A stretch of DNA of 62,695 nucleotides, counting the filler. It is 9 parts of 9 records of this genome, joined end to end, with 100 filler letters (N's around TTAATTAATTAA, not from the genome) between each part and the next. Parts side by side here need not be neighbours in the genome. Positions count along the whole stretch, not along the records: positions 42,419 to 50,946 come from SRR31147125_167498; 8 more parts are not named here. One strand, written 5' to 3'. The notes under the pieces were generated by a model. It worked only from the letters and a program-made list of their open reading frames with translations. It was not told the origin of the DNA and did not search any database. Position numbers and translations under genes: made by a program. Shown piece after piece: positions 42,419 through 62,695 of the stretch. How positions within the stretch are numbered: position 1 is the first letter of the stretch; every line of letters begins with the position of its first letter.

Positions 42419-43483
42419 TTCGGGGTTGTAATCATAGCGATGCACGTTCGGATTGTAGACCCAGGTATCGGGTTTGTACGGTCCGGTTGCCGCGACACCA
42501 TACCCCAACAGAACACCATCAATGATCTCCTGTTTATTAATGGCGTAAGAAAGAGCCTGCCTGACCCTTTTGTCCTGAAACAGCGGACGCCTTAAATTGT
42601 ACCCTAGGTAACTGTAACCAAAACTCAGATAACGATACTTCTGATAGAGACGCCGAAAAGCAGGCGTATCCGTTTGTCGATCATATTGCAGGGGCAACAA
42701 CCCCATGAAATCAAGGCTGCCTGTTTGAAGTTCGAGAAACTGCGTAGACAGATCAGGAATGATGCGATACACGACCCGCTTGATATAGGGTTGCCCTTCA
42801 AAATAATCGGGGTTGGATTCCAGAACAACCTTTTCCCCTCCGAGCCATTCAACGAAGCGATATGGGCCCGTGCCGACAGGATGCCGCGCCAACGGACTTT
42901 TGGTGATCTCCACCCCTTCCAGAAGGTGTTTTGGATGAACGGCCGTCGCCCAACTCAAAAGCGCAGGAGCATAAGGCTTGTCGTATTTCACGATAAAGGT
43001 GTAATCGTCCGGCACCTCGACAGAGGTCACCTGGCGGAACGCTTCAGCGTAAGCTGTCGGCGTCTCCGGATCAACATAAAGGTCGTAAGTGAATTTAACA
43101 TCCGCCGAGGTAAAGGGCGCACCATCGTGCCACCTCACCCCTTTACGCAGATGAAAAATCAGGGTCAGATTATCATCCGATATATCCCAGGATTCTGCCA
43201 GTTCGCCTTCGACAACAAGATTTTTGTCGTAACGGATCAGACCATTGTAAACCAGCCCATTGATTGAACTTGATGCCGAATCAGACGCAAGAACCGGCAG
43301 CAGCGTACTGGCGTCGCCAATCGACGCTTCGATAAACGTGTCACCATGAACCGGTGTCTGAGTTTTAGACACCCCGGGCAGATCACTACCCTCATCCTGC
43401 TGGCAACCGATCAGCAGAACCAGGATAAACCCACAGGCCAGAGCAGCCACCCTAGTGAAGTTCTTACTTTTTTCCCTGTTCAC
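42419..43483 (-). CDS. Peptide/nickel ABC transporter substrate-binding lipoprotein, family 5 (3' truncated)
   Basis: Lipobox LLIGC; LAESW.IS.D..T..F.LRKGVRWHDG.PFT..DV.FT; PVGTGPY; DKRVRQAL..AI. Confidence 0.93.
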
Positions 43484-44250
43484 GGCAAGGCCTCAAAAAC
43501 ACTGCCCGTCGGCTGGGCCAGAGTAAATTGATCTGCGTCAAGAGCGATATTCAGCTTCAGGTCTTTGAACTTCACCGTCATCTTCGTATCCTCTGTTGGC
43601 AATTCTATCTTAACTTTCAGCGGAAAGCCGCTCCCTGTTTCAAAGTTATCATAACTGACATTCAGTACAGTCTGCTGTTCATTTCTGTAGGCACATCCGA
43701 CCAGTGTCAGCTGGGAGTCAAAGTACAGATCCTGCACAACATTCTCTCCCGACAAAGTCAGGCGTACGCGGTCACCTTCAATCTCAACGTGCCTGTCACC
43801 ATATCCGACCAGTGGCGGGTCATACAGGAGCAGAGGGATCAGGTCGTCCGCCTTCAACGGAACACGAACGAATCGACTCATATTTTCATAACTTGCCGGA
43901 CCTGCATAGTAGCGCCCCGGGACCGTATTGTTCAAGAAGACAGCCATTGCCTGCCCATCCGAAGCGATCTGGAGGGCAAGCTGGCCGAATCCCGTCAAGA
44001 CATCTGCCCGCAACCGATCAGGGCGTTCAAGGAGCAAAAACTGCTGGCTGGAAACGTATTTCCCCTGGACCGACAACCCAACACTTGCAGACGCATCCAG
44101 AGATTGATTGCGCCCGGAACCGGCCAGCACACGGGCCATCAACTCTTCAGCCACAGGGGGCGACTGCCAGTCATGACGCGCGGAAAAAGGTGCACAGCCT
44201 GCGAGCAGCAGAAAGCACGATAATACGATAAGAAGACAGCGATGGTTCAT
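43480..44250 (-). CDS. LolB-like / DUF4292-type lipoprotein
   Basis: Lipobox LLAGC; RPDRLR.DVL..FGQ; beta-rich C-terminus ending F.L..P; follows a TPR lipoprotein, as lolB does in proteobacteria. Confidence 0.6.
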   Translation of the reverse strand: MNHRCLLIVLSCFLLLAGCAPFSARHDWQSPPVAEELMARVLAGSGRNQSLDASASVGLSVQGKYVSSQQFLLLERPDRLRADVLTGFGQLALQIASDGQAMAVFLNNTVPGRYYAGPASYENMSRFVRVPLKADDLIPLLLYDPPLVGYGDRHVEIEGDRVRLTLSGENVVQDLYFDSQLTLVGCAYRNEQQTVLNVSYDNFETGSGFPLKVKIELPTEDTKMTVKFKDLKLNIALDADQFTLAQPTGSVFEALP

Positions 44251-45986
44251 GGTTCTGTTATATCCAGTTGCAGAAGTTTCTCTTTCACTTGATCGGCCTC
44301 TGGATCAAACAGATACGACCTCTCATAACTCGTTCGTGCCTGATCAAGGAGTCCCATATCACGATACAGGTCACCCAGGTGCTCAAGAATGACCGCATCT
44401 TCCGGAAGCGCGGCGGCGGCCTCTTCCAGATAGCCCCGACCTTCTTCAAGACGACCCAGCTTGTAGTAAACCCAGCCAAGGGTGTCAGCGATATAGCCGA
44501 TCGGGTTGATGGCATAAGCCTTCAGAGCCCGTTCAAGAGCACTCTCCAGTGAAATATTCTTTTCTGCCTGGTAATACGCCAGAAAGTTCAAGGCGTCGGC
44601 ATGCTCTGGGTCCAGGCTCAGAATCGATTCCATCGTCTGTGCTGCGGCCTCGGAACGCTCCATTTTTTCGTAAATGATGCCAAGCTGATACAGGAGCCGA
44701 ACATCATCAGGAAAGACGTCGAGAGCATTCCTTGTGACGCGCAACGCTTCGTCTGAACGCTTGAGCTCATCAAGAAAAATCGACAGATAGTAATAGGCCT
44801 CCGCTTTTTTTATCCCCGTCTCCAGCAAATTTCGCAATACGGTAACAGCGCCGTCCTTGTTCCCAAGCTTGTTGTGGAAATAGGCCTTCTGGACGGCGGC
44901 ATCAGGATAGACATCGGACGAGACCTCTATTCTGTCAAGAGCCTGAATCGCCTCCTCAAACTTCTTCTGCCCGGCCAGTGCAACCGCCAGATAATAGATA
45001 TTCTGATCTGTGTGACTTTCTGTTTCCAGAACTGTCCTGAACCGCGTCTCTGCTTCAGCCCAATTCTCCAACTCAAGTTCTATCAAAGCGAGGCGAGTAA
45101 CAATGTGAGTATTCTCGGGCTGATATCCGAGAAGAATCAGAAATTCATCCCTGGCTTCATTCAATTGATTTTTAGTCAGATAATATTGAGCCAGTCGCTG
45201 GCGAACAGCCAGGGCCAGAGGGTTGGCTGCCAGAGTCTTCCGATACAGCGCGAGAACAGCATCAGGATCAAGCTTTTTCAGAAAACCCGCATACTCAAGA
45301 GCCGCCTGTTGATGGCCTGGAGACTGCTGTAACGCCCGATTGTACCAGAGCATCGCCAAATCAGGTTCACCATCAGTTGCGTAAACCCGCGCCAGCGCAA
45401 GCTTGGCAATAAAGGTCTGTGGGTAGCGATCGAGAATGCGTTGCAGAAGATCGATGGCACCGGCATTGTCGCCGAGATGAACGGTCGCCATTGCCAGGCG
45501 AATCTGCAATGGTAAGTTCTCCGACTCAATTTCAAGAGCACGTTGAAATTGCGAAACAGCAGCCTGATAATCACCATCCAGACTGTGTACCTGCCCCAGA
45601 AGCTCATGCCCTTCGAAATTATCCGGGGCCTCCTCCAGAATCCCGGACAAAACAGCGACCGCCTGATCCAGACGCCCTGTGTGTACGTAGGCCTTGGCCA
45701 GAACCAGCCGCAAATACAAAGTGTCCGGATCCAGGGCAACCGCCCGTTCAAGAGCCCCGAGTGCCTCTTCCCAACGCTCCTCTGAACCATACATCCTGAA
45801 CAGACTGAAAGCGAACAACGCCTTCGCCTGAGGTGAGGACACGGAAGAGCGATAAGCAGGCAAAGGGTTCTTCACCAACTCGGACGGCGGGGCCTGTGAG
45901 TGCATCGCGCAGGCTGACAACACCAGCGTTGTGCAAACAGACAGTAAGAATAGTGACCAGGAAGATTTTTTTAGACTGAACAACAC
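44247..45986 (-). CDS. TPR-repeat lipoprotein
   Basis: Lipobox LSAC; many TPRs; C-terminal ALNFLAY...DTLGWVYYKLG...HLGD.Y. Confidence 0.9.
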   Translation of the reverse strand: MLFSLKKSSWSLFLLSVCTTLVLSACAMHSQAPPSELVKNPLPAYRSSVSSPQAKALFAFSLFRMYGSEERWEEALGALERAVALDPDTLYLRLVLAKAYVHTGRLDQAVAVLSGILEEAPDNFEGHELLGQVHSLDGDYQAAVSQFQRALEIESENLPLQIRLAMATVHLGDNAGAIDLLQRILDRYPQTFIAKLALARVYATDGEPDLAMLWYNRALQQSPGHQQAALEYAGFLKKLDPDAVLALYRKTLAANPLALAVRQRLAQYYLTKNQLNEARDEFLILLGYQPENTHIVTRLALIELELENWAEAETRFRTVLETESHTDQNIYYLAVALAGQKKFEEAIQALDRIEVSSDVYPDAAVQKAYFHNKLGNKDGAVTVLRNLLETGIKKAEAYYYLSIFLDELKRSDEALRVTRNALDVFPDDVRLLYQLGIIYEKMERSEAAAQTMESILSLDPEHADALNFLAYYQAEKNISLESALERALKAYAINPIGYIADTLGWVYYKLGRLEEGRGYLEEAAAALPEDAVILEHLGDLYRDMGLLDQARTSYERSYLFDPEADQVKEKLLQLDITEP

Positions 45987-46225
45987 AGCTGTCCTTTGAT
46001 AATCCTTAGATAAAGATTAATTAGCACATTCATTTCATGAGAGCAAAAGAATAACATGAAAACCAGAGGGCAGAACACCCGAGAGCCAGGGCGTTAAGAG
46101 CCGATATTTATTCGCACTATTTTCATTCTGTTATTGTATTTCATTCAAGACCGGATTAATCTATTAGAAAAGAGTTAGATTTCTCCACAAGACATTGACC
46201 CGCTTGCCTGCCATGGGGCCTTAGC

Positions 46226-46471
46226 ATGCATGAGTCTAAAGAAAACTCAGTCCGCGAAGCCTGGATTCTGTGCCTGATCCTGGGGCTGGTCATGATTAAT
46301 TTCCCCTTCGTCCATATTTTCAATACGGAAAAAACGATATTCGGGATTCCTGAGTTGGTGCTCTATTTCTTCATCGGCTGGCCGGCATCCATTATCGTCA
46401 TTTGGCTCTTTGTCTATCATCTGAGTAAATCGGCTCAGAGCTCACCCGAAACAGACAGTGATCAAACCTGA
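46226..46471 (+). CDS. Small two-TM membrane protein preceding the SLC5 fusion
   Basis: 81 aa, two hydrophobic helices, IFGIP..V.Y.F..W motif; ends 9 nt before the symporter fusion ORF. Confidence 0.75.
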   Translation: MHESKENSVREAWILCLILGLVMINFPFVHIFNTEKTIFGIPELVLYFFIGWPASIIVIWLFVYHLSKSAQSSPETDSDQT

Positions 46472-46480
46472 TCTTCGATA

Positions 46481-49400
46481 GTGGGCGCTGATATGGCAAT
46501 GATCTCTGCAAAAACCGTATTTCTACTTTCACTCTTCTACTTTACGCTGATTTTTATCGTCGCATTTTATGCTGATCGACGTAAAAAACAGGGCAAAAGC
46601 CTGCTGGCCAGCCCTCATATCTACTCTCTGTCCCTCGCCGTCTACTGCACCAGCTGGACATTTTACGGCAGTGTCGGACGGGCTGCGACCAGCGGTCTCG
46701 AATTTCTTCCGATCTATCTGGGCCCGACTCTGATTGCTTTCACCTGGTGGTTCCTGTTGCGCAAGATGGTCCGCATCAGTAAACAGCAGAACATCAACAG
46801 CATTGCTGACTTCCTCTCCAGCCGCTATGACCGATCTGCGGTTCTTGGCGCCATCGTCACCCTGTTCGCGGTCTTCGGCATCACACCCTACATCGCCCTG
46901 CAATTGAAGGCGATCTCGCAAACACTGAACATTCTCTCGGCTCCTCTGTCGATGACGGGCTTTGCCGTCGACAGCTACCTGAACATTCTCCCTGAAGGAA
47001 TTGATACGGCCTTTTTCGTCGCTATCATCCTGGCCGTTTTCGGGATGCTGTTCGGTGCCAGACATCTCGACTCTTCAGAGCGCCATGAGGGGCTTGTCGT
47101 CGCTGTTGCTTTCGAATCTCTGATCAAGCTGATCGCCTTTATCGCCGTCGGGATCTTCGTGACCTACGGCATGTTTGATGGGTTTTCCGACATCTTTCAG
47201 AAGTTCAGTGAACAGTTTCCGGAACGCCTGGACATGTTCCGGCTCGGGACAGAGCAGACGCCTTACACCAAGTGGTTCACCCTGATTGTCCTGTCGATGA
47301 TGGCGGTCATGTTCCTGCCGCGACAGTTCCACATTATGGTCACAGAGAACTCGGACGAACGTCACATTAAACAAGCGATGTGGCGCTTTCCGGCCTACCT
47401 GTTTCTGATTAATATTTTTGTCCTGCCGATCGCCCTCGGCGGTCTGATCATTAATGGCGGCGACGCTTCTCAGGCTGACTATTTTGTTTTAACCCTCCCT
47501 TTGTCGTCCGGTCATCCATGGCTGGCTCTGCTGGTTTTCATCGGTGGACTCTCAGCTGCGGCAGGAATGGTCATGGTCTCGTCGGTGACCATTTCGACGA
47601 TGATCCTGAACCACCTGGTCATGCCAGTCATCCTGAGAATGAACGCTCAGGTGCAGGATTTTTCCGGTATCCTCATCAATCTGAAGCGAACCGGCATCCT
47701 CGGTGTTGTCTTTCTCGGGTATTTTTACTTCAAGGTCATCGGCGACTCCTATGCGCTGGTCAATATCGGTCTGATCTCTTTCACCGCGGCAACTCAATTC
47801 GCACCTGCGATCATCGGTGGCCTTTACTGGCACAGAGCTAACCGCAAAGCGGCGATTTACGGCATTGGTGCCGGTTTCATGCTCTGGGCCTATACCCTGC
47901 TGATTCCTTCCTTTGTCCGCTCCGGCTGGCTCAGCAGCGATATTCTTCAAAACGGAATTTTCGGGTTGAGCCTGCTCAAACCATTGGAACTTTTCGGTCT
48001 GCGTGGTTTTGATATCTACACACACTCTCTATTCTGGAGCCTTCTGTTCAATCTGGCAGCGTTCTTGACCATCTCATTTTTTGCCAAGCAGAGCAGCACG
48101 GAAAAACAGCAGGCCGAAAAGTTTATCGATGTTTTTGTCGATCAGGTTGCAGGATCAGAGCGCCTGACCCGAATCAGCAAGGCCCCAACGGTTCTGGAAT
48201 TTGTTGAGCTGATGTCCAAGTTTATCGGCGAAAAACAGGCCCAGTCATCGATCATGGACTATCTTAAAGACCAGGAGATCGATTCCCGGGGAAGCCTGGC
48301 GGATCACGAGATCCCCAACCTGAAGAATTTTACCGAACGGACTCTGGCTGGTTATGTCGGTGCGGCTCCGGCACGAATCATTCTCGACAACTACCTCGCT
48401 GCACGCGGCAGTGAGATGGAAGATGTCTTCGATATTTTCGGGACGGTCACCATCAGCCATGCATCCAGTCGAGAGCAACTGAGCGTTCTCTACGAAGCGG
48501 CTCAGATTGTTTCCCGCGGCTCCGAATTTCAGAAAACTCTGGATGCGATTCTTGAACTCCTCTCACAGCAGTTCAAGTTCGACCTCTGTGTTATCCGTAT
48601 CCTTGAACCGGAATCGATGACGTTGATGGTCAAGAGCCTGAACGGCCAATCATCGGAGCATTTCGGCCAGTCTGAGCGGAATCTCAACATGGAGACCTAT
48701 ATCGGCCAGGCGTTCCTCTCCAACGTCACCACGGTTGTTAATGACAGCGAGTATCTGGACAAACCGATCTCGGCGAAAATCATCAAGCGTGAGGGGATCA
48801 CTTGCTTCGCCCACACACCGATCGTGCTGGAAGGTGAACCTGTCGGTGTCTTGTCAGCTTTTTCAAAAACAGTCCGAGGCATTTTTACCCAGGAATTTAT
48901 CGCCCTGTTTGAAAATATCGCCGGTCAGATCGGCATCGCCTGGCGGAATCATGAACAATTGCAGGAACTTTTAAGTGTCCGCGATCAGGAACGTGAAATG
49001 GAGATTGCCCGTGAGATTCAAATGGGTCTTCTGCCGACAAAACTTCCTGACTTCGACTCCATTTCCGTTGCCGGGCTCTGTGTCCCCGCTCATCAGGTGG
49101 GTGGTGACTATTACGATATCATCGACTGGGCCGGTGACTCCTACGATCTGGTTATTGCCGATGTATCAGGGCACAATATCGGCTCGGCCCTGATTATGGC
49201 GGAAGCCAGAACCTTCATCCACGCACGTGTGAACAGCTCGCGCCAGCCTGCAGAGATGCTTCAGCAGCTGAACAGTTACTTCCTCAAGGATCTCGACCGC
49301 TCAGAACTGTTCGTCACAATGTTCTACCTCCAGTATAATCCTCATGATCGCCGGCTCATCTACAGTAATGCCGGCCACAACAACCCTCTCCTCTGGCGCA

Positions 49401-49717
49401 AACGGACACAAACAATTGACCTTCTTGACGCAGATGGGTTGATCTTCGGGATCAAGAAAGACATCTTCTTTGAACAGAAAACGACTACTCTTGAACCGGG
49501 TGACATGCTTCTCCTCTACACCGATGGGATCGTCGAAGCGGAGAGTATCGATAAAGAATTTTTCGGCACCGAGCGTCTCGGAAAGCTGTTACAGGAGAGT
49601 GCTGATCTCGAACCGCAGGAGATCATCGACCGGATTATGAACCAGGTCAGGATATTTACCGGCATGAGACATTTTAACGATGACATTACCATGGTGGTTA
49701 TGAAAGTATTATCCTGA
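46481..49717 (+). CDS. SLC5 (Na+/solute symporter)-STAC-GAF-PP2C(SpoIIE) fusion phosphatase
   Basis: CbrA/CrbS-type SLC5 (YSLSLAVYCTSWTFYGSVG, SIADFLSSRY, PYIALQLKA, FLPRQFH); STAC about 48190-48400 (KFIG...ERTLAGYVGAAPARIIL); GAF about 48480-48950; PP2C (VGGDYYD, DVSGH, NAGH, LYTDG, DDIT). Start could be 46493 or 46499. Confidence 0.92.
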   Translation: MGADMAMISAKTVFLLSLFYFTLIFIVAFYADRRKKQGKSLLASPHIYSLSLAVYCTSWTFYGSVGRAATSGLEFLPIYLGPTLIAFTWWFLLRKMVRISKQQNINSIADFLSSRYDRSAVLGAIVTLFAVFGITPYIALQLKAISQTLNILSAPLSMTGFAVDSYLNILPEGIDTAFFVAIILAVFGMLFGARHLDSSERHEGLVVAVAFESLIKLIAFIAVGIFVTYGMFDGFSDIFQKFSEQFPERLDMFRLGTEQTPYTKWFTLIVLSMMAVMFLPRQFHIMVTENSDERHIKQAMWRFPAYLFLINIFVLPIALGGLIINGGDASQADYFVLTLPLSSGHPWLALLVFIGGLSAAAGMVMVSSVTISTMILNHLVMPVILRMNAQVQDFSGILINLKRTGILGVVFLGYFYFKVIGDSYALVNIGLISFTAATQFAPAIIGGLYWHRANRKAAIYGIGAGFMLWAYTLLIPSFVRSGWLSSDILQNGIFGLSLLKPLELFGLRGFDIYTHSLFWSLLFNLAAFLTISFFAKQSSTEKQQAEKFIDVFVDQVAGSERLTRISKAPTVLEFVELMSKFIGEKQAQSSIMDYLKDQEIDSRGSLADHEIPNLKNFTERTLAGYVGAAPARIILDNYLAARGSEMEDVFDIFGTVTISHASSREQLSVLYEAAQIVSRGSEFQKTLDAILELLSQQFKFDLCVIRILEPESMTLMVKSLNGQSSEHFGQSERNLNMETYIGQAFLSNVTTVVNDSEYLDKPISAKIIKREGITCFAHTPIVLEGEPVGVLSAFSKTVRGIFTQEFIALFENIAGQIGIAWRNHEQLQELLSVRDQEREMEIAREIQMGLLPTKLPDFDSISVAGLCVPAHQVGGDYYDIIDWAGDSYDLVIADVSGHNIGSALIMAEARTFIHARVNSSRQPAEMLQQLNSYFLKDLDRSELFVTMFYLQYNPHDRRLIYSNAGHNNPLLWRKRTQTIDLLDADGLIFGIKKDIFFEQKTTTLEPGDMLLLYTDGIVEAESIDKEFFGTERLGKLLQESADLEPQEIIDRIMNQVRIFTGMRHFNDDITMVVMKVLS

Positions 49718-49791
49718 TACCTGAAACAATGACAAGAATCGATTAAAGCTGATATTTAAGACATTCCTAACCGATATTAAAGGAGACACCG

Positions 49792-50127
49792 ATGCAACTG
49801 AATATGAGTGAACAGGGAGACATCATCAAAATCGATGTGCAGGAAGAGCGTATGGATGCTCACAACAGTGGAGATCTGAAAGAGCAGATGCTGCAACTGT
49901 TTGATGAAGGGAAATGCAACCTGATCGTGGATTTGAGCTCCGTTCGCTTTATCGATTCATCGGGGCTGGGAGCCCTGGTTTCCGGGTTTAAAAATGCCAG
50001 CGCTCGTGAGGGATGCCTCAAGCTTTGTTGCCTTCAGCCACAGGTACGCTCCATGTTTGAACTGACACGTCTCCATCGTGTCTTTGAGATTTATCCAAAC
50101 CATGATGAAGCTTTGTCGAGCTTCTAG
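49792..50127 (+). CDS. STAS-domain anti-anti-sigma factor (RsbV/SpoIIAA-like)
   Basis: LIVDLSSVRFIDSSGLGALV with the phospho-acceptor Ser; FELTRL..VF; AAGGAG RBS. Confidence 0.93.
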   Translation: MQLNMSEQGDIIKIDVQEERMDAHNSGDLKEQMLQLFDEGKCNLIVDLSSVRFIDSSGLGALVSGFKNASAREGCLKLCCLQPQVRSMFELTRLHRVFEIYPNHDEALSSF

Positions 50128-50151
50128 CAAAGCATTAAAAGTCAGGAATAT

Positions 50152-50583
50152 ATGAGCAAAAGGATAGAACTTAACGTTAAGGTTCCGAATCAGACGAAAT
50201 ACCTCAGTATGATCGGACGTATGGGCGAAAGCCTCGCTTATTCCCTGAAGGGTTTTCAGGGGAACAGGCGGGAGCTCGCCTATCACCTGAACCTTGTTCT
50301 GACAGAGGCAGTCGCCAATGTTATCTGTCATGCTCATCAGTACGACCCGGACAAAGATGTCAGCGTCTCAATCTCTGCCTCTGATCAGGACATTCTGATC
50401 AAAGTTTACGATCAGGGGCAGGGGTTCGATATCCAGTCTCTCGCCAGTCAGAAATCTCAATCCGGAGATGAATGCGGCCGCGGAATCCACCTGATTATCA
50501 AATTGATGGATCAGGTCGAATATCTGAAGGAAGGAACGTCCAACGTCCTTCTGATGAAAAAACATCTCTCCCCGAAGAGCTAG
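50152..50583 (+). CDS. Anti-sigma factor / Ser kinase (RsbW/SpoIIAB-like)
   Basis: EAVANVICHA (N box), DQGQGFD (G1), GRGIHLI..LMD.V (G2). Confidence 0.92.
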   Translation: MSKRIELNVKVPNQTKYLSMIGRMGESLAYSLKGFQGNRRELAYHLNLVLTEAVANVICHAHQYDPDKDVSVSISASDQDILIKVYDQGQGFDIQSLASQKSQSGDECGRGIHLIIKLMDQVEYLKEGTSNVLLMKKHLSPKS

Positions 50584-50592
50584 AAACAACTC

Positions 50593-50946
50593 TCAGTCGA
50601 CCCCGTACTCGCTCAGTTTTCGCCTCAACGTCAGGCGCGTTATTCCCAACATATCAGCGGTTCTGGTTTTATTCATATTGCTCTGCCGATAAACAGCAAT
50701 GATGTGCTTCATCTCAACATCGGCAAGTCGAACGGAGTCACGGGTTCCCCGTGCTGCATTCTCGTCACCGCAGCTGGCTAAAGGCATCAGGTCAGAAATC
50801 CCGATCTCTCCGCCGGGATGGAGTAAACACATACGCTCAACGACGTTTCTCAATTCACGAACATTGCCGGACCATGGCTGCGTCTGCATGCATTTCAAGG
50901 CATCCGGAGAGAAATGGCACTCCTTGCCGGGAGCCCGCAACAGGAA
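50593..50946 (-). CDS. Sigma-54 dependent activator, C-terminal part (5' truncated)
   Basis: WSGNVRELRNVVER and Fis-type HTH NKTRTADMLGITRLTLRRKL. Confidence 0.9.
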   Translation of the reverse strand, partial: FLLRAPGKECHFSPDALKCMQTQPWSGNVRELRNVVERMCLLHPGGEIGISDLMPLASCGDENAARGTRDSVRLADVEMKHIIAVYRQSNMNKTRTADMLGITRLTLRRKLSEYGVD

Positions 50947-51046: not shown

Positions 51047-52755
51047 TGGATGGATGGATGGATGGATGGATGGATGCCACACAATCTACAGAGTCTGACA
51101 GGCCATCATGAATCTAGCTTTGATTCGCCTGAGACTGCTGTTGATCATACCCATGACTGTTCATCGGCCGTATGTCGCCTGAAACTCAACATGCGTTTGC
51201 TTCAGACATTCGTGGCCGAGTCCATGCACAGACAGGGTACGTTGGGCATACCAACCATTGTGGAAAGTGCAAATGAGGTGTTCAAAGAAGGTTTGGGCCG
51301 CAAGACCTTTCGGCTGGAAGAGGATGATCAGGGACAAGTGGTACGTCCCTCCACGAAATGCAGCGATTCCGATTCGATACACCACCCCCTCCTAGCTTGT
51401 GCATGTCCGTCAAAGTTCACGCACAACGGAAGAATGGCACCAAACAAAGACGGAACAATTATGGTTTGTGCCGGATGGGCTCGACTCGGTCTGAATTCTG
51501 TCTGCATCAGGGGTCTGATAGGCGAGGAGGTGAGAAACATGGATCGTTATGAGAAGAGTGTGACTGTTGTGATCATGGGATTCTCCCACTATGATGCGGA
51601 GAGCAAAGTGGTGGGGGTGAATTGTGTATTTGGATTCTTGTTGCTGCTAACGTATTACAGGGATTCGCGCACACGGCCGTGGGTGGAGGACATCTTGCCC
51701 TCTTCAGTAATCTGGGTCTTCATTCTTGGGCTGCTTCCTTAGAGGAGGTGTCTGCTCGTTTTACGGATTCAAGAGAACTTCCGGAAACGGTTCATGACGA
51801 CTCAAATTCTCGAGGGACATTCTGGGCCTTGTATTCCACGACGTTAGGAGCCACTTGTGCGTTACGGTTGACCTTGTTATACTCCTCTTAGCTCCGTGAT
51901 CTCTCGCAGTGCACGAGATGGGTCATTGTTTTTCCCTTTCCCACACACGTAACAGAAAAGGAATCATGGTGTGTGACACTTTTGTTGTTCTTGTTGTTCT
52001 TGTTGTTCTTTTGTATGCAAACGTGGCACCTTTTTGTTAAGTTCCGCGACTTTGACCACATTAATCGTATTTTCGTTCCGTGGGAGCCACCGTCCGCGGG
52101 GCCCCGGTACGATGCCTGGTACATGAAGAGGGAAGGATGTTTTTAACCGTTTGGGTGTGTGGTAGCGGGGGTCTTCCCCTCATTGATCAACAGAGGGACG
52201 AGGTAGGGTGGCACCGATCTTCTGCGGTCCGTCTTTGTTACCATCGTCATTTCTGGTTGGATGACAGGGGGGTGAGTGTTTGGGGAGCGGCCCTGAATGT
52301 TCTGTCCCTGAACGTGACTCCGTCAGGATGTCTCGGCGCGAACCTTTGTTCCCAACACGGATCTTGCTCTTACTATTGGTGTCAGTGATGTGTGTAGGGA
52401 GGGGTTTCCATGTTTGTTTCCATGTTTGTTTGTTTGTTTGTTTGTGAATTTCATCCAGGATGGGGAATACGTTATTATACGAGCCCCGCGTGGCATGCGA
52501 CACGTGGACTACCGTATCCAGGGGGAAGTTGATCATCATATGGAGTACGTTCCGTTGGTGGTGGTCGTTTGTCAGTCACACTCTTTCGACAGATATCTGG
52601 GGAATCAGATCACGGAAGAGGTTCAAATCCCGTTCAAGGACCTCCAATCCCTCTATCCGGAAGAGAAAGAGATCCTTGTAACGGCAGAGGACGACACTGG
52701 GGCAATTGTGGAGGAAAAGATCGGACTTGTTTCATTGCAAGCTCAGTTGAAGTAG
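51047..52755 (+). CDS. Eukaryotic putative zinc metallopeptidase (Metallopep/YIL108W-like), multi-exon, 5' truncated
   Basis: LLQTFVAESM, RKTFRLE, AHTAVGGGHLALFSNLGLHSW, RGTFWALYSTTLGAT/LHEMGHCFSLSH (HExxHxxxxxH), GIM/FRDFDHINRIF, WHRSSAVRL.YH. Confidence 0.8.
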
Positions 52756-55700
52756 GACGGCGACACGAGCAATTCCGTGAGGAGACTCAATTGTTCCTCG
52801 GTAAATCTCTCCCGTACCTGAACCACACGAATCTATCACACAGCATGCACACATATCCAACACCCCCACACACCAAGATCCACGAGTCCGAGATTGTGCG
52901 CCAAAACTCGGCAAAGGTCTTGCGTACAGTACCTTGAATGGGCATAGGATCCGCAATGTGTGGTGCGAGCTGGAAGCATGGTAAGTGATGAGTGATGAAC
53001 CAGGTCCTGTCGTCCTCACCTCCACCAAAACGGTGGGGAGCCACGATCGAACGTCGAACGGGTGCGTAAGCACAAGGGCTGCCAATCCTAAAACACCACC
53101 ATGGCGACGGAGGAACGCTGGTCTCCGTAATCTCTTCTCCCGCTCATCCGAATTCCTTTGTTGGGATATGGCTTCGAGGGGCAGACGGGCTTGTTTCGCA
53201 AACCGTGCCTGGGAGAACGCGTCAGGATCATTGTAGGCACATAGGGCACGACAACTACGTACAGAAAGATCTTCCATTTCGTGATCCGAAGCGATCCTAA
53301 GGAATCCGGCCAGTGTTGTACAGGCTTTTTCACGAACCTATTCATGGCGTGATGCACGGAAGGAGACGATGGGTATATCAAATGCACCTACCTCCACTTG
53401 GGGATCTTCCAACAAGGAAACCACAAGTTCACGCAGTTCGTGTTGTTCCGCGGCTGTGATCATGAACTGGTGCTGGAACCCAATGCAATGAAGAAAAGGC
53501 AAGACAGCGGCACGCGTATGCCATGCAGGGGATCGCATCACTTCTCCCATACACTTGATGAGGGGCCCAAGAACATGTTGAGGATAGTGTTCGCGGGCTG
53601 CACATGACAAACAGTGGCGTGCCAGGGACGCAACGCCGGGGACAACATCATCTTGCAGCGGAAAGATGAGAGGGAACAGAAGAGTTACAAAGGAGGAACA
53701 GGACTTGGAGAATCCGGAACGAAGCAAGCCAAGAACCCACAGGAGCACGGTCTTGCAAAAGGAGGAAGCCTCTAAGAACTCTGGACTCGTTCGAGCAAAG
53801 TGGAGATAGTCACTCGCAAGGATTTCTTTCATCTTGGAGGATATGGTCTCGACGAACTGGCAAAGTCGGGGCGGGAGTGTCGATGGAGCATCGAAGAGCA
53901 GTTCATCTGTCTCCGGATTCCGGGCAGGTTCCCAATGACACGATACAATAGCGGAAATCACCGTGGCGATCCGTTCACGTACTTGCTTGTAGGGATGTGC
54001 CAAGTGTTCTTCCAGTTCGTTCAGAAGCGACTCGCCAATCGAGTATCCCCGCCATGTGAACTCATGCAGAATCGGCTGTAAGTCTCGAAGACGTTTGGCT
54101 TGTCCTTGGGATGTGCTCGGTGCAAGAGGATCACGCACAAGTTCGTCTGTGAGGGGATGGAGTCGTCGCGGGTCAATATCGTATACACAGAATCGAATGG
54201 CCGATGCCCAGTCTACAAGGCTCTCTGGTGGGGAGGACGCTAGTGCGGTGCGCAAGATGGGCAGAACCTTGCTCCACATTCGCATCACAGTCGTATATGG
54301 CCAGTGTCGGCTTCCGCGAATGATCCCGGCCAGAGTTTCGGCTGCGGCGCACTGATGATCCCGGTCTTTGGTGTCCTCAGACAGACGACGGCAGTGTTCT
54401 AGCACCTTGTCCAGGAAACACTCACCAAACACCTGAAATGTCCCCTTGAACACTTGTGCTGTGCGATCCTCAAAGGCGTCGGTTCCCGTACGGTGATCAT
54501 CCCCAAACAGACGAAAGAATGTGTCAAGAAACTCATCCGACTCGAGGTGGGCCCGAGCTTGACGAAGAATGACGGCATCGGGGTCAGCGTCATCGTCACG
54601 GTCCCAGTCTCCTTCGTTGATGAGGGGAGGAGGGTCATACACAATTCCATTCAAGGGACGTCCATTCCAGCCGTAGTGATCTGATTGATTGATGGGAAGC
54701 GTTAGGGCCCTTCACGTGCGTTCGAGTGTTTCTCACGTACTCTTGTCATAGAAGTGACAGGCGTTCCATTCCTCTTCGTTTTGGGGAACAGAAAAATGCA
54801 TCCAGTCTTGTCGTGTGAGCCGTTTGGAGAGTTCGGGGTCGAGTCGTCGTGACCGTGGCTTCTTCACCGCCAGAAGAAAGTCATTGAATCCCTTCATACT
54901 GGTGGGTCGTTTGTGGGTGGCTTATCGCACGCGGGGCGTCATCACACGTACGCCAATTGTCGTAGAGGAGCCAGGTCGCTTGTCAGCCCGTTGAGGAACC
55001 ACTGGACAATGGGCCACGTTGGCTTTACATCTGTGCGGAGAAGAATAATCTTGGGGGACTGTGTAAGGAAGGTGTCGAGACTCCTCTATACACAACACAC
55101 CAAAAACGATGTCATCCACAACTGATATCGCCAGTGAACAGACGGATCTTGCAGTTTCGTAACGAGAGAATCAATCTAATGGAGACACTCACTCCCAAGG
55201 AAGAAGACCTGTGTCAGGAACGGACCAGGTGTTCATAGACCTTCATGGTTCTTTCATTGATGTCGAGAAGGGTTCTTCTTGCCATGGCCACATCCTCTGC
55301 GGATACGCACTCGATGCACGCTTACCCAGGCGAGAGAATCAGTCCAAATGCGACCTGTTCCACAGGACGTACCTGTTGCAGAATCCGGAGGCGGAACACG
55401 AAGGGGAATAGGATAGAATGTCACACATATGTTGATGAACAAGTGATTCAGACAGTATTGGACAGAGGGCTACAGAACCCATTGTTTGTCCGTAGTAGGG
55501 AATACGCACACGCATACCTTCTCTCTGACATGGGCGTTACAAAGTCCACACATCAACTGTGCCGTCAGATCCCAGTCATGAGAAATATAACGCGTCAAGA
55601 ACTTGTGGGTCAGAAGATAGACAGCTCCTGTCGTCTCCTCATCGGAAAACTCTGACCGGGTGTGAGTGATCTTGAAGCATATCTACCCACCCCCCGCGTA

Positions 55701-57035
55701 CGTGTGTCGTGAAGACGTTGAATGATCCTGGGAATCATGGAAGGAAGCGCCTCAGGGAAGCGCTTCAAGGATGATATAAGAACCGGTTGAGCCTTTCTGC
55801 GTACAGGTGGTTCGAGGTTGTCGTTCTTCATACCTCGAATACGGAGTGCATACCTTCGTACTTGAGAGTAAGCATTTGTTGATAACACAAGCATATCTTC
55901 CAAGAGATTTTTGTAGAGATCTGATAAGGATACACAGAAGTTGTATTCACTCCATCGAAGAGTGTGCCGAATGAATTCACGTTCCACTGGTTCATGAGGG
56001 AGTGAATGAACCAATCTCACCCCCCCACCCACACGCACACGCGCGCACCGCTAAGATAGCGTGGTTGAAAGGGTCCCCGCTGACCTTTGAGATGGGGAAA
56101 GAGTGCATATTTGATGGCATCATGCCCACGCTACAGACACATCACCAATCTCATGAACCAGTGAGTCCGTACACGGGCACATACTTTGCGATTCGAGTAT
56201 TTGGTACGATCTACACCACGAATAACAACAAATTGATTGATAATCTGCGTTTCGTTAGGTTTTGCGCCTGGTTCTCCTCCTCCTCCTCCTCTCGCTTACC
56301 TTAGCTACCATGCGTAGGGCACGCACATCATCTTCACGATGAGCAAGAAGGAATTGACAGAACCTGTGCAAAAGTTTTCCAATCTGCTGGCGCATACCGT
56401 CCTGGTTGTTGTGCTGTTGTTAGTCCGTGTACCAATGTATCGTCGAGGCGCATACGAGGGCAAGAGGATGACACATGCCCGCTTCTACGTGATTCCGCTT
56501 GAGAGGTGAAAAACCGGGTGGTGTCTCTCTGATGAGAATTGGTGAGGGGACAGGAACCGTTGGCCTTGGGATGGGATGGGATGAACGCACTCCACCACAA
56601 CAGTGTGTTTCTCTGCTTCAGTTCCATCTGATAACAGAGTGGGCGCGCCGCGCACAATATTACGAAGGCGAAGGAGCAGTTTCCAAATCTCGTCTTTTGA
56701 GGCCATCCTTTTTCGCACCCAAACACGGGATCACGACGAGATCTTCCTTCTCCCCTCCTCGCACGTACTTTTCGCCTGCCGTGTCAACAATTTCATTGAG
56801 TCGTTTCATGGGTTCCGCAGCAAACTCTTTCACCAAATCACACGCAAATGCCACTTCATCGTCACTCTTAATGAATCCATCAACATCAGACCGTCCTCAA
56901 ACGAGAGAACAACGAACCGGACAGTGCCACGTAATAGTCCGATTCTTTGTTCTGCTGAGACCCCATTTTCTGAAGTGGACCTTGGGAAAATCTGTGGAGG
57001 TTGTGGTTGAGGATGATGATGATGATGATGATGAT
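52743..57035 (-). CDS. PSME4: Proteasome activator PA200/Blm10, multi-exon, 5' truncated
   Basis: AAAETLAGIIRGSRHW, HPYKQVRERIA, WHTRAAVL.FL, LLEDPQVEV, RRHGGVLGLAALVL..PF, TVRKTFAEFWRT, FTEEQLSLLTELLVSPSYFN-stop. Confidence 0.93.
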
Positions 57036-57135
57036 NNNNNNNNNNNNNNNNNNNNNNNNNNNNNNNNNNNNNNNNNNNNTTAATTAATTAANNNNNNNNN
57101 NNNNNNNNNNNNNNNNNNNNNNNNNNNNNNNNNNN
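57036..57135. other. Artificial contig spacer
   Basis: N-run with TTAATTAATTAA. Confidence 0.99.
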
Positions 57136-60100
57136 GTGTGTGTGTGTGTGTGTGTGTGTCATGGGTAGGCACAGGTCGTCCTCTCATTCTTTGAGATGCG
57201 TTCGAGGCGTCCTTCCTTCTTTGCACGCTCTGATCAGAAGGTGACATGGGAACGATGGACGTTTCGTTTACTTGTGAATCGCCAAAGTATAGATCCAGCC
57301 GGTAATGTTCACTCCTGCTACCATGGCGTCAGATTGACCTCCGTGTAGAACGGACAGCACGTCAAGAGCGCCTTGATGCAACCCTCCGAGCACGCATCGA
57401 GGCCATTGTCCAGCTAGTGAATCAGAGGAGGGACCATGTTCCGCGGCTTGTTCACAACGAAATGAAGACCTTCCCATTCGAAGTACGTTCGTTCCCTCAA
57501 TCGGCCCATTGTGATATTCATCCCCTGTGCACAGATCACCGTGCCCTCCATGGATGACTCGTGGTCCTTGGACAGATTCAAGAATCTCATGCCTCCCCCA
57601 ACGACAAACCTTCTGTAACCCTCTTGGTCGAGTGTGGTTACAAACAGCGTTTATGTACACATGTCCGTCTGCTCGGGCACCTCGTTTCCAGACGTTCCTC
57701 TCCCAGTCCCTTCGGCGATTGCATTCAAACGTGGACCTTCACTTCCCCCATTATGGGAACGTCTTGATGCGCCAATCATGTGCCCATAGGATCGCCGCCG
57801 TGCTTCCACACTACGTCAATTATGTCAGAAACTCCACACACACACACACACACCCCTCCCACCTGTATGATCTCGTACGTTCCTCCTCCCCCTCTTCCCA
57901 GTTCATAAGATATACCTTGGGGTGGTTGGTGGCCAGAAGTCCCAAGGCCCCAAGATCCCACAGCTGGCTTACCTCAGATTCTCCCTTGAGCGGCCACCGT
58001 TGGTCGTGATCCAAGAGACACCCCCCAATAACAAACCTGCAAATGAGGAGGAAGATGAGAGACGTGACAACTAGGAGGAGGAGGAGGAGGAGGAATGCAC
58101 TGTTGAGTAATGGAAAAAATGCCAAATCCATTCTTGATACGAATTGACACCTTCCCCATGGAGTCCCCTCGGGATACGGGAACGCTATTTGATTTGTCAG
58201 TGATCATGGAGGCATACACGGGGAAGCTTCACCTAAAGACTTCGGCCGTTGAGGCCCGATGGACCGTAAGCATGAATCTCTCGGTGTTCGCAGGTCGAAA
58301 GGGTACCAAGAATACCAATGAGCCCGGCCGTACATGCTCAGCCAACGGCGCTGTTTTTCCGTGCTCGTGTGTAAGGATTTGGGGGCTAATCGATTGCACG
58401 TTCGCACTATTTTCAGGAAGAGGTCCTCCGTTGAACCACAGGCGCTTCATCTTGCATCCAATCTTCTCCTCCACATCGGATGTCGTCTGGGATAAATTAC
58501 CGCACCGTTCCCTTCTCCGTCTTCTTCTCCCTCTTCCGTTCGTACCTTGCATTCTTCGACGCGATACACCTGGCCGTTCCCGTCACACACATACAAATCA
58601 CTCTCAAACGACGCCTTGGTATCGGAGGGACTGACATCATATGTGAGTGAGTGAGCTGCTGCTACTACACATGTACGTATTCTTTACCTGGGTGGATCTT
58701 TCGCCATTAATCCCCAGTCATCATACGAACACTGACGAGGGATTAGAGAGAGGTCCATGGGGATGCGAGATCCCTACCAGAGGATACACAGGGCTCGGAA
58801 TACGACACCTTTCGCCCTGTTCCTGCCTTTCATTGGACGATCTCTACGAGCGTTGGACCATAAGACTCATTCATGGCTCTTTCGTAGTTCGTACCGCAGC
58901 AAACACCACATTTGGCGTAGATTGCATTCGCTGGAACGTGCTCCTCTCTTCGTCCTGCCATTCACTCGCGCGCAGATGATCCATGGGTGGCGGAGCACTT
59001 CCTGACTCAACCGTTGGATCAGCTATTTGTTGTCTAGAGACACATCCGTTGTGTGTTGGAAGATCAATTCGATCGTCAAACAACACGAACCCGTCATTCA
59101 AGAGCATCTGAAGGTGTTCCCCTTGGTGACCATTGTCGCGCATATCCTCACCTGTGGGCACTTGATCTCTACTGCCAGCTACCCCCTTCCTTGTTCACAA
59201 CAATGGCGATGACGATGACACACGATCACTTACCCAATTCGCTTTCTTCTTCTTCTTCTTCTTCATCATCTTCTTCTTCCTTCTCCTTCTCCTTCTCCTC
59301 TTCCCCCTTCTCCTCCTTCTCCTCCTCTTCTTCTTCTTCTACATCACCCGCACAAAAAACCCGTTTGGCCCCTTCACGTGAGGCGAACTCACATACAGCC
59401 CAGTATGTGCCTCCCCGTGTCAAGAATACCCTACATCGGACCTGTTATCCAAGAATCCCTTTGTATAAGGATCACCTTTTGCTTCGGCGGACGTGTCCCA
59501 GTTGACCTCCACGTGTAATCCGAGTGACCAGGGTCTTCAACGGAATAGAGCGAGGAATGTTGTGAAATAACAGAGTTTGGAGGAGACGCTGGGGCCCCAT
59601 CAGAAGCGATCGATCCATCCATCACACAGAAACCCTACCTTCTCTCTGACTTCTCCGATGGGCGTCCCACCCACTGCTATCGGAATTCGGAACACCGTTT
59701 CATACGGCTTATGCTACTCAACACTGAGAAGGAGGAATCCGAATCCACCAAACAAAGGCGCGCAACAACCACACCTCCTCTCTTTCGATCAACGACAGGG
59801 TCATCCGTCGCACAGCATCCGTCCTGATTTCGTTCAATGTCTCTGCACAAAGAACCTCACCTACCCCACTTGTGAGGAATGCACACACATAGAATCGGTA
59901 TCTAACCATGGGACGTGCGAATGGCAACGCTGAGTGCCTCTACCCATTTCACCATCTCCTCTTGAGAAGAAGCCACCATGAGATATCTACACGTATTCCC
60001 ATTGATCCTTAGTCTCTCTTTCTCTCTCTTACACGTATACACGCCACATACTCGCGATCTTGGGTCGTCACAACAAACGCATAGTCTGGTTTGCTTCCTG

Positions 60101-60523
60101 CTGGAGCTTCCGAGACCCTAACTTCTCCATTAAGAGGAATTACACCCCGTGGCGACTGTCCGACCTTGTACTCCTGGGTTCCTTGTCTGTTACCATCCAT
60201 CCATCCATCCATCTCAACAAGATGAGTCCACCCACCGCCTCTTCCGCATAGTACTCAAGCTTCGTTGTCTCCAATAAAAAGAACCGCTCTTGCCAGCGGT
60301 GGGGCCAGCGCCCCCCACGCTTCACCAGATGACCTGATAGACTGAGGGAACACACAAAACCCATCGGCGTTCAGCCGTGACCCCCGTGACGTCACGAGAG
60401 CGGGGAACACGCGGGAACGTACGTAAACTTCTGCTCCAGGTCTGGGCTTTCGGTTGTGAAGAACTTCCCACCGGAAAGCTCGCGGGTGGACTTGCCACGA
60501 GCGGCCCCGTCTCCCTCCTGCAT
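57136..60523 (-). CDS. Eukaryotic protein with N-terminal PH domain and acidic tract; remainder unassigned
   Basis: LSGHLVKRGGRWPHRWQERFFLL...LEYY/PRGVIPL...AFVVTTQDRE/YLMVASSQEEMVKWVEAL; poly-Glu tract 59230-59345. I could not resolve the downstream exons or exclude a second gene. Confidence 0.6.
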
Positions 60524-60727
60524 GGATGGGGTGCCACGGACGTGTGCACCACCACAAGTCCCCTCTCTCCCCTCGTGCCCTCGTACGTTCACACCCGCCC
60601 CCCACACAGGAAGGGAAGTGCCCTGGGCCTTCCTCCTCTTTCCTCTTTCCTGTTCTCTCTCGCCACCCCTCCACCTCCACCTCCTCTGTCCTCTCCACTC
60701 TACGTGGCTTGCTTGGGTAGGGGAACG

Positions 60728-62626
60728 ATGGCAGCTCAGTCGCGTATCAACGTCCAAGGGAAGACCGAGAAGAAGGAGGTGTGTCGTGTGTGTTCTTGTG
60801 GCACGGTGGGGTTGTGTGTCGTGGGCGGGCGTGGGGCGTGAGGCGTGGGGTGGGGGTGGGCCGAGAAGCCGTCCATCCAATCCGCCACACTTCCTCTCTC
60901 TACACCTGCCGGTCCCCCTTGTTGTTGACACGTCCTTTTCAAGGGCTGGGAAGACACAGAGTTCCCTATTCTGTGTGAGACCTGTCTTGGGCCCAATCCT
61001 TACGTTCGCATGGCACGCGAGACCTTTGGCAAGGAGTGTAAGATCTGCAGTCGTCCCTTCACGTGCTTTCGGTGGAAACCAGGTCGAGAGGCTCGCTACA
61101 AGAAAACAGAAGTATGCCAGACGTGTGCAAAGATGAAGGTAGGAAGGAGATGAGGGAGGGACGAAGACGACAACGACGGAATCGCAGAACGTTTGCCAAA
61201 CGTGCCTCTTGGACCTCCAATTTGCTCTACCTGTTCAGGTGGGGGAGGGGTGGGGTGTGGGTATCAGTCATACCAACACCTTTGTCGTTGGTAGGTTCGG
61301 GATCAGTTCCTTCCTGAGGCAGAACGGATCGACGTCCCCCAGGGCAATGTCAACATGGAATGGATGCGTCATCAGGTGGAACATCGTGTATGTAGTCTTG
61401 TCGTGGGTGTTGTTGGGTGCACCGGCCCGTGGCAGACGGAAATGTGGGACAGATCAAGAACAATGACATGCCGTACGGGAAGATGCACGTGAATCCAGAG
61501 CTGCTTCGGTTGGCCCGAGTGTCTCCGTGTACGACGGAGTGTTGGGAGACTCGTTGGGGGAGCTCACGTCGCTTGTCTTCCTCCAGACTACAAACGAAAC
61601 GCACCACACGTTTGTTCTTTCTTTATTAAGGTAGAGAATCTGTGTGAGGAACACCTGTCTGACACCTAGACGGTCAACTTCAGGGAGAATGTACGCGTGG
61701 GGCTGAGTGTCCGTTTCGTCACGAGCTCCCGGAGAGCGGTGAGATGGCAGAACAAAATATCAAGGATCGGTAGGCAGGTGTCCTTGTTGCAGAGCGTGAA
61801 TTTTGACGTTTGAGGGCCGCAGATATCATGGTGTGAATGATCCTGTTGCCGAGAAGCTCGTACACGAGGTATGAGGCACATTCATGGGGCACCAGATAGA
61901 GATGGTTCACTGGACACCGTACAGAAGGACGCACCACACGCCGTGGATCCGCAACCTTCTGTCGATCCGTCTCTCACAACGTTGTTCGTGGGGAATGTGG
62001 ATACCAACAGGATTGGTGAAGCCGACATCCTGTACGATGGCCAGAGCGTTGCCCCTTCTTCGCGCATCTCTAACCTCAACTTGTAAGCTTTGCGTTTCAT
62101 AAGTGCGAGGATGATGTGCAGTCCGTTCGCCTAGCACCTCGCGTAAGGGCCGCCTTTGTCACCTTTCGTACCCATGGAGGAGCCGCACAAGCCCTGGAGA
62201 AACTGTGTAACAAGGTGGAGTAGGAGTTCTGTTTGGCGACAACGAGGCATGCGTACCCATCCACTTGCACACAGCTTGAAATTCGTGGATCCAAGTTACG
62301 CTTAGCCTGGGGCCATCCTCAAGGAGAGCAGCCCAAGGGTCTTCCCTGCCCCGTTCAACGTACGCACCTGCCGTGTTCATTCCGTGCTCATGATCATCCC
62401 AGGGGATCCGGGCGTTGTTTCCCATGAGAGCACACCCCCTGCCTCCCTTCCTTCTTCCTCCACCACTCCTGGAGTTCCTTCATCTGGTAGGGAGTTCGCG
62501 ATTCCTTTCTTCTCTCTGGTCCTGTGTTTATTCATTTCTCTAGGTTCGATCCCCGTCGTTGTTCCCATGGGACGCCCGTATTATCCCTCCATGGATCCCC
62601 ATTACAGGGGGAGTGCTCCTCGGTAA
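60728..62626 (+). CDS. RBM22: Pre-mRNA splicing factor RBM22/Slt11, 13 exons, 375 aa
   Basis: [22 protein letters not shown]...KECKIC.RPFT.FRW...[25 protein letters not shown] finger ([29 protein letters not shown]), RRM, YPSMDP. Removing 12 GT-AG introns (771 nt) leaves an uninterrupted 1128-nt frame. Confidence 0.96.
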
Positions 62627-62695
62627 ATAAAGAATAAAAAAGGTAGCCGTCAGGGGAGAGATCGATCATTCCTGTTGCTGTTGTTGTTGTTGTTG

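Follow-up and report, generated by a model that had tools for sequence, protein, structure and literature searches.

The window analysed here is a 62,695-nucleotide stretch made of unrelated contigs joined by N spacers, and our subject is an operon that lies within one 8.5-kb contig of it (SRR31147125_167498, positions 42419-50946). The operon couples a transporter-like sensor to a serine phosphatase, a STAS protein and a serine kinase. Reading the open reading frames of this contig gave four intact, co-oriented genes at 46226-50583, all on the + strand, where a first-pass annotation made from the sequence alone had placed them. The features are listed below with their counterparts in Geobacter sulfurreducens.

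46226..46471, + strand: two-helix membrane protein of 81 amino acids (aa), a predicted CbrX-like SLC5 subunit; counterpart of GSU1430
46481..49717, + strand: SLC5-STAC-GAF-PP2C fusion, 1078 aa; counterpart of GSU1429
46508..48085, + strand: SLC5 symporter-like domain of the fusion, residues about 10-535, from alignment to 10ed_A, the CbrA pocket residues and K216
48191..48400, + strand: STAC four-helix bundle of the fusion, residues 571-640, from the model helices and alignment to the CbrA STAC region
48524..48943, + strand: GAF domain of the fusion, residues 682-821, from Pfam and the 2qyb match
49136..49708, + strand: RsbU-type PP2C phosphatase domain of the fusion, from Pfam (SpoIIE, E 9e-54), with intact metal-binding aspartates
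49792..50127, + strand: RsbV/SpoIIAA-like STAS protein, 111 aa, predicted phospho-site Ser56, over the TIGR00377 cut-off; counterpart of GSU1427
50152..50583, + strand: RsbW/SpoIIAB-like GHKL serine kinase, 143 aa, from Pfam HATPase_c_2 and the 6m36 match; counterpart of GSU1426

The GTG start of the fusion gives 1078 aa, and an ATG at 46493 or 46499 agrees better with the relatives. Residues 10-642 match the SLC5-STAC chain of CbrA (10ed_A, E 4e-75), and residues 670-830 match the chain 2qyb (E 2e-32), which is the GAF domain of the G. sulfurreducens counterpart. Pfam places GAF at 682-821 and SpoIIE at 886-1076. It gave no SSF match in this copy of the fusion, although Foldseek pairs the structure model with SGLT, NIS and vSGLT, and also with the phosphatases RssB, SiaA and Rv1364c. 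The AlphaFold model (mean predicted local distance difference test [pLDDT] score of 75) contains a helical membrane domain, a STAC bundle (helices 571-582, 584-596, 610-626 and 628-640), the GAF domain, a single long helix that runs from GAF to the phosphatase (804-850), and a PP2C fold. The membrane-domain helices are consistent with 13 transmembrane helices (TMs), where TM2/3 and TM4 were assigned from DSSP segments that are merged or split. By its 13-TM SLC5 domain and STAC bundle, the fusion belongs to the SLC5-STAC family.

At the C-terminus, histidine kinase output is absent: Pfam finds a SpoIIE-type PP2C domain and no HisKA. The metal-binding motifs (GGD876, D894-VSGH, YTD1015G and D1067-D1068) show no change in any of the 26 aligned rows, and these aspartates, together with the N-terminal linker helix, assign the domain to the RsbU-type PPM phosphatases. 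In RsbU the linker helix controls PP2C dimers, and swapping of outputs through this helix has been proposed for PP2C, kinase and GGDEF effectors (PMC12143880; sources given here by accession or preprint identifier are cited for the accessible portions of their text). The best 120 homologues listed measure 953-1094 aa and all contain GAF and SpoIIE. An assembly artefact, which the first-pass annotation had named as a possible flaw, is ruled out by these full-length fusions and by the gene order that recurs across the class.

The STAS protein and the kinase complete the set. In the STAS protein, D55-S56-S57-G58 is invariant in all 21 rows and aligns with SpoIIAA and RsbV; the phospho-acceptor is predicted to be the first serine of this DSSG motif, Ser56, in whose placement we took S58 to be the numbering of the SpoIIAA phospho-serine. 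It is the most conserved member of the operon, with 49 of 111 positions invariant across the 21 rows, compared with 31 of 143 in the kinase. The STAS gene of one assembly (L017:8202-8527) is frameshifted, through sequencing error or real loss, and dropped out of the alignment. The kinase aligns over residues 8-138 with its best solved match, RsbW (6m36), and all 22 rows keep its residues E52, N56, D87-x-G89-x-G91 and G109-R110-G111. Its scores fall well short of the equivalog cut-offs for RsbW and SpoIIAB. The intact aspartate motifs, the DSSG serine and the RsbW-like kinase had all been proposed in the first-pass annotation, and all three held up. Based on the linkage of a PP2C phosphatase, a STAS protein with a conserved serine and a GHKL serine kinase, the operon is assigned by sequence to the partner-switching systems.

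The small protein has no Pfam family over cut-off, and 3 of 21 relatives give weak DUF3311 matches. Its conserved residues are W13, G20, N25, P27, P42, G51 and W52. A profile search against solved chains, CbrX included, found no match (best E 0.12), and its Atlas matches are nameless clusters from this phylum; a label of "solute:sodium symporter small subunit" at 0.89 serves as a lead only. Blind prediction of a complex between its residues 1-72 and fusion residues 5-650 scored 0.81, against 0.00 for the best control, with contacts that agree in at least 97% between runs and a partner pLDDT of at least 78. Of 78 solved pairs, 51 attain this mark, as do 2 of 108 mismatched ones. The predicted interface comprises fusion residues 73-91, 235-269 and 297-315 (TM3, the TM6/7 loop and TM8), which maps onto the CbrX site through the 10ed_A alignment. 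CbrX, a peptide encoded upstream, packs on TM3 and TM8 of CbrA beneath the TM6/7 loop (bioRxiv 10.64898/2026.03.10.710862). The model supports a small protein that would bind where CbrX binds CbrA. The operon suggests, too, that SLC5-STAC sensors generally come with a CbrX-like subunit. An SLC5 kinase of Paracoccus denitrificans also has an 81-aa upstream protein and lies between genes with nucleotidyltransferase and exonuclease domains (L053:2278-9178).

Genome-wide counts refer to a class sample of 301 relatives (G001-G301), many of them incomplete genomes; a scan of genome contigs with the single protein yielded only three loci. The closest named relatives are metagenome-assembled genomes of Geopsychrobacteraceae (82% and 75% identity). 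The SLC5-STAC part is matched in 268 of the 301 class genomes and the kinase in 281, with a single kinase match in 250 of those 281. The operon is near-core in the class Desulfuromonadia, being kept by about nine in ten genomes. Among the 113 genomes that appear in both listings of 150 matches, the fusion and kinase genes lie side by side in the same orientation in 100, on different contigs in 12, and far apart in one. When class loci were opened, the small gene stood directly upstream of the fusion in 24 of 27, and the STAS and kinase genes stood 3' of it in 21 of the 24 with downstream sequence. The architecture and synteny survey that the first-pass annotation proposed finds the fusion class-wide and the operon order recurrent. 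In a phylum-wide sample, with two candidates scored per genome, 56 of 301 genomes matched, and full-length matches came from nine genomes, all from the class sample.

A fifth gene of about 525 aa, counterpart of GSU1431, usually abuts or overlaps the small gene on its upstream side (16 of 24 operon loci; for example L012:1973-3562, L016:2735-4315 and L025:10255-11826, plus 13 more class loci). An AAA_33 P-loop domain was found in three of three scanned proteins and APH in one of three, in an APH-like N-terminal part. The gene is optional, since eight of the 24 operon loci and the studied locus are without it; at the latter, about 240 bp separate a TPR gene from the small gene.

Three class loci carry solitary fusion copies without the small gene, STAS or kinase (L013:3470-6732, L022:4608-7856 and L045:6452-9691), each in a genome with more than one SLC5-STAC match; one such genome, G005, also carries the full operon (L046). 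The L022 copy comes after genes for an acetyl-CoA hydrolase/transferase and a sigma-54 activator. These duplicates may sense a different ligand, and L013 and L022 are altered in several pocket residues.

The small protein and the SLC5-STAC-GAF part of the fusion behave as a portable input. Searching cluster representatives gave 1570 proteins at E 1e-30, and the best 150 of them include five with a PP2C domain. Of the 45 scanned with Pfam, the majority terminate in a histidine kinase, while GGDEF/EAL, HD or DUF835 domains form the C-terminus of others; a crude histidine-kinase pattern search under-counts and was left out of the counts. In 15 of 15 loci from other lineages of the phylum, SLC5-STAC-GAF is joined to a histidine kinase, which is what identifies the module as portable, and a small-gene homologue lies upstream in 11 of them. 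In these histidine-kinase forms (L030-L044), which appear to be uncharacterised, the next genes usually encode a single receiver and a receiver-kinase. On a tree of 78 SLC5 rows, the PP2C fusions of the class form one group (support 94, P0174 included) among GAF-kinase forms. A Streptomyces SLC5-GAF-PP2C-HATPase chain (P0151) and P0200 lie elsewhere, so that at least three changes are needed, and a single clade for all PP2C fusions is rejected in a 28-row subset (approximately unbiased test, p-AU 2e-15). By this phylogeny, PP2C output has been joined to SLC5-STAC more than once.

Six of the nine pocket residues named for CbrA are kept in the fusion, proton-site lysine included; the differences (CbrA/fusion) are S53/T57, A56/T60 and F248/S272. 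The lysine, K216 here and K196 in CbrA, is kept in 23 of 23 class rows. The pocket is nearer to that of a CrbS-like row (L052, which from its length and neighbours we take to be MxtR/CrbS) than to CbrA or RpuS (L050), and most of the 78 rows have the same pattern. Since this pattern is the family consensus, the residues did not yield a ligand assignment. Nor did the class loci opened show any catabolic gene that regularly neighbours the operon.

Five genomes were examined for other partner-switching genes. The operon kinase is the sole PF13581 match in four of them, three of which hold extra SpoIIE proteins, and the operon STAS is the sole PF01740 match in two; further SpoIIE proteins occur in four of the five. 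Eight extra-SpoIIE loci were opened, seven of them in these genomes and the eighth in G007. One includes a STAS and a kinase gene of its own, one looks like a SiaABCD operon, and six have neither. The SiaABCD-like cluster of four genes lies in the close relative G001 (L061:3112-7578). Two of the six orphans are close paralogues of the operon's phosphatase domain, scoring 281 and 300 bits, almost the operon's own score, one of them behind a receiver-like N-terminus (L056:2944-3933 and L063:3858-5819); judged by sequence, both are candidate extra inputs to the same STAS protein. Because the kinase is mostly the sole one while orphan phosphatases lie elsewhere, the STAS/kinase pair may be a hub. 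No SigB/F/G-type sigma factor (TIGR02980) scored over cut-off in 201 class genomes, with a positive Bacillus subtilis control, and no sigma gene appeared among the annotated operon genes of the 27 class loci, whose flanks are only partly identified.

The balance tips slightly towards an operon that encodes a membrane sensor-phosphatase likely controlling phosphorylation of the STAS protein, with the kinase predicted to act against it, and that probably serves as the principal partner-switching hub of Geobacter-type bacteria. In the mechanism we propose, the small protein would pack against TM3 and TM8 of the symporter-like domain in the manner of CbrX on CbrA, and a small organic solute, probably a carboxylate or an amino acid, would bind the intact proton-coupled pocket. 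The resulting change would be relayed through STAC and GAF into the long helix, setting PP2C dimer activity as in RsbU, while GAF may read a second, cytoplasmic ligand. As the motifs suggest, the phosphatase would dephosphorylate Ser56 and the kinase would rephosphorylate it. The same STAS protein probably also receives input from PP2C sensors encoded at other places in the genome. The output would be something other than a SigB/F/G-type sigma factor. We find it doubtful that a solute bound in a proton-coupled symporter fold directly switches the serine phosphatase as the one conserved input of this hub in metal- and electrode-reducing Desulfuromonadia, with the STAS protein acting on a new non-sigma target; if true, no transceptor would have been shown before to signal by dephosphorylation, and no simpler system would exist for testing whether SLC5 motion drives signalling.

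Several points weigh against the sensor-phosphatase reading. Every mechanistic step is predicted from sequence, models or analogy, and the complex prediction may mirror likeness to the solved CbrX-CbrA complex. CbrX is dispensable for CbrA function (bioRxiv 10.64898/2026.03.10.710862), CbrA/CrbS chimeras signal without substrate transport, and STAC deletion has no growth phenotype in P. fluorescens (PMC5715377). The pocket pattern, being that of most of the 78 rows, names no ligand. High conservation of the STAS protein could simply reflect binding of both kinase and phosphatases. In published transposon insertion sequencing (Tn-seq) of G. sulfurreducens, as far as the accessible portion of that source covers it, all five operon genes carry 14.5-20.9 insertion sites per kb, where the essentiality cut-off is 4, and log2 ratios stay within about 0.45 on fumarate and on electrodes. 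Insertions are tolerated in all five genes, so the system is dispensable under those conditions and offers no phenotype on which to hang a function. We take acetate to have been the electron donor in that screen. Acetate, which the first-pass annotation had listed for a ligand screen, gains little: GSU1429 tolerates insertions, the mutants grow normally, and the pocket resembles the CrbS-type acetate sensor in a pattern that is also the family consensus. The earlier proposal of a solute-controlled serine phosphatase toggling a partner-switch is supported in its architecture and in its phosphatase/STAS/kinase switch; its transport gating is conjectural, and CbrA/CrbS output needed no substrate transport. 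By analogy, the CbrA work argues against strict transport gating.

The input could also be read differently: the switch would be genuine, GAF would read a cytoplasmic signal, and SLC5-STAC with the small subunit would mainly anchor and dimerise the phosphatase, or import the solute for GAF. Overexpressed CbrA retains signalling after loss of its SSS domain (PMC7918813), sensing is suspected to lie in its PAS domain (PMC7918813, PMC5715377), and GAF accompanies the module into kinase outputs. The gene is also split at the start of GAF in two class loci, L012 and L013, although the split in L012 (L012:3807-7019) may be a single mutation or sequencing error. We consider this explanation unlikely, given that the pocket and the proton-site lysine are conserved in all 23 class rows and that several pocket residues differ in the duplicates L013 and L022, which is what a specificity-setting pocket would predict. 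A fusion born of chance or assembly, or a phosphatase with no link to the adjoining STAS and kinase genes, is hardly credible: the three of 27 loci with a lone fusion lie in genomes with further SLC5-STAC matches, G005 among them with a full operon, full-length fusions are widespread, and the adjacency described above recurs.

Other explanations concern the output step, and the canonical anti-sigma cascade is compatible with either model of the input. Here the kinase would hold a sigma-70-family factor, RpoS being the most plausible, which dephosphorylated STAS would free, giving a nutrient-triggered general stress response. The alignment of the kinase with RsbW over its whole length fits a sigma-binding role, RpoS-like sigma factors, identified by gene context, are present in the genomes opened, and CrsR, which holds RpoS in Shewanella, is a precedent. 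Loss of many anti-sigma factors is costly; rsbW insertions, by contrast, carry no fitness cost. Given this, the missing sigma gene at the 27 loci, the 0 of 201 count for SigB/F/G, and the several STAS proteins that act downstream of their kinase (PMC10120452), we regard the cascade as possible, at less than even weight. Control of flagellar genes through FliA or FlgM would follow the model of HsbA in Pseudomonas. FliA is found in 222 of the 301 class genomes, while 70 of the 79 without a FliA match keep the kinase (a set difference that includes incomplete genomes), and intact operons occur in G019, G024, G044 and G046, all four without a FliA match. FliA/FlgM as the sole target is disfavoured by these counts, and flagellar control as such appears improbable. 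Over kinase-held RpoS or RpoD and over FliA/FlgM, we favour, as about an even call, a STAS protein that itself acts on a conserved non-sigma target.

Upstream of the operon, at 42419-45986, lie divergent genes for a TPR lipoprotein, a LolB-like protein and a peptide ABC binding protein, a neighbourhood kept beside the operon across much of the class. At 50593-50946, 3' of the kinase, a convergent fragment of a sigma-54 (Fis-family) activator runs to the contig end; in relatives such as L002, L020 and L025 this place is taken by lgt and a HAD hydrolase gene. Promoter and terminator scans gave chance-level counts (6 versus 5.0 and 8 versus 4.7). The remaining contigs (1-42318 and 51047-62695) are unrelated and, from reading their translations, carry bacterial housekeeping, alpha-2-macroglobulin-like, RecC-like and adenylate-cyclase-like genes; at least one appears eukaryote-like.

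The operon bears on whether the transporter part of SLC5-STAC proteins such as CbrA and CrbS controls output, and its read-out would be one phospho-serine on a 111-aa protein. G. sulfurreducens is genetically tractable, its operon genes are non-essential and the GAF structure is solved; the class Desulfuromonadia is central to metal reduction and microbial electrochemistry. Our literature search found no experimental study of the operon, within a scope that left subscription papers, the original STAC paper and some supplements, which may list the architecture, outside reach. The sole locus-tag mention found is one sentence on GSU1427/Gmet_1229 (PMC2700814), and the accessible parts of PMC9100948 and PMC4834066 treat only kinase-type systems and STAC itself. 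This agrees with the first-pass annotation, which knew of no experimental characterisation and allowed for annotation in relatives. It had missed the CbrX-like small subunit, the fifth APH/AAA_33 gene of most relatives, the near-core status across the class, the lack of a SigB-type target, and the actinobacterial proteins with SSS, GAF and PP2C.

Compared with known systems, the operon shares its SLC5-STAC input, proton-site lysine and six of nine CbrA pocket residues with CbrX-CbrA of Pseudomonas putida (PDB 10ed), CrbS/MxtR, RpuS and PrlS. CbrX-CbrA also has an upstream two-helix protein at TM3/TM8, the site predicted for the small protein here, although the two have no sequence match. The CbrA type signals through a PAS-histidine kinase and a response regulator, whereas here GAF-PP2C would act on STAS. 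With the Bacillus cascades (RsbU/RsbP-RsbV-RsbW-sigmaB and SpoIIE-SpoIIAA-SpoIIAB-sigmaF) it shares the PP2C domain with linker helix, the DSSG STAS protein and the GHKL kinase; it differs in its transporter-fold sensor, in the lack of a SigB/F/G-type sigma factor and in a kinase far from the RsbW and SpoIIAB equivalogs. SiaABCD and HsbR/HsbA are sigma-less STAS switches. SypA/SypE, BtrU/V/W, RbaV/W and HmpV (PMC10120452) likewise combine phosphatase, STAS and kinase without an adjacent sigma gene, and STAS may be the effector; unlike the operon here, none of the sigma-less switches was seen with a symporter-fold sensor in the accessible parts of these sources. A review mentions proteins of Actinobacteria that combine SSS, HATPase, GAF and PP2C (PMC7918813, section 5.1.1). 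The Streptomyces form (P0151) shares the SLC5 input, GAF, PP2C and an RsbW-like domain, with the kinase in the same chain and a separate place on the SLC5 tree, and appears to be known from domain surveys only. In G. sulfurreducens, GSU1431-GSU1430-GSU1429-rsbV-rsbW includes the upstream APH/AAA_33 gene that the studied lineage is without at this place. The system is a member of both the SLC5-STAC family and the partner-switching systems, and falls outside both the CbrA-type two-component sensors and the SigB cascades. Already known are the annotated fusion and the SSS-GAF-PP2C proteins of Actinobacteria; new are the predicted CbrX-like small subunit, the lack of a SigB/F-type sigma match in 201 class genomes, the kinase kept in most genomes without a FliA match, an input shared with sister-lineage histidine kinases, the repeated attachment of PP2C, and a mostly single-copy kinase accompanied by orphan phosphatases.

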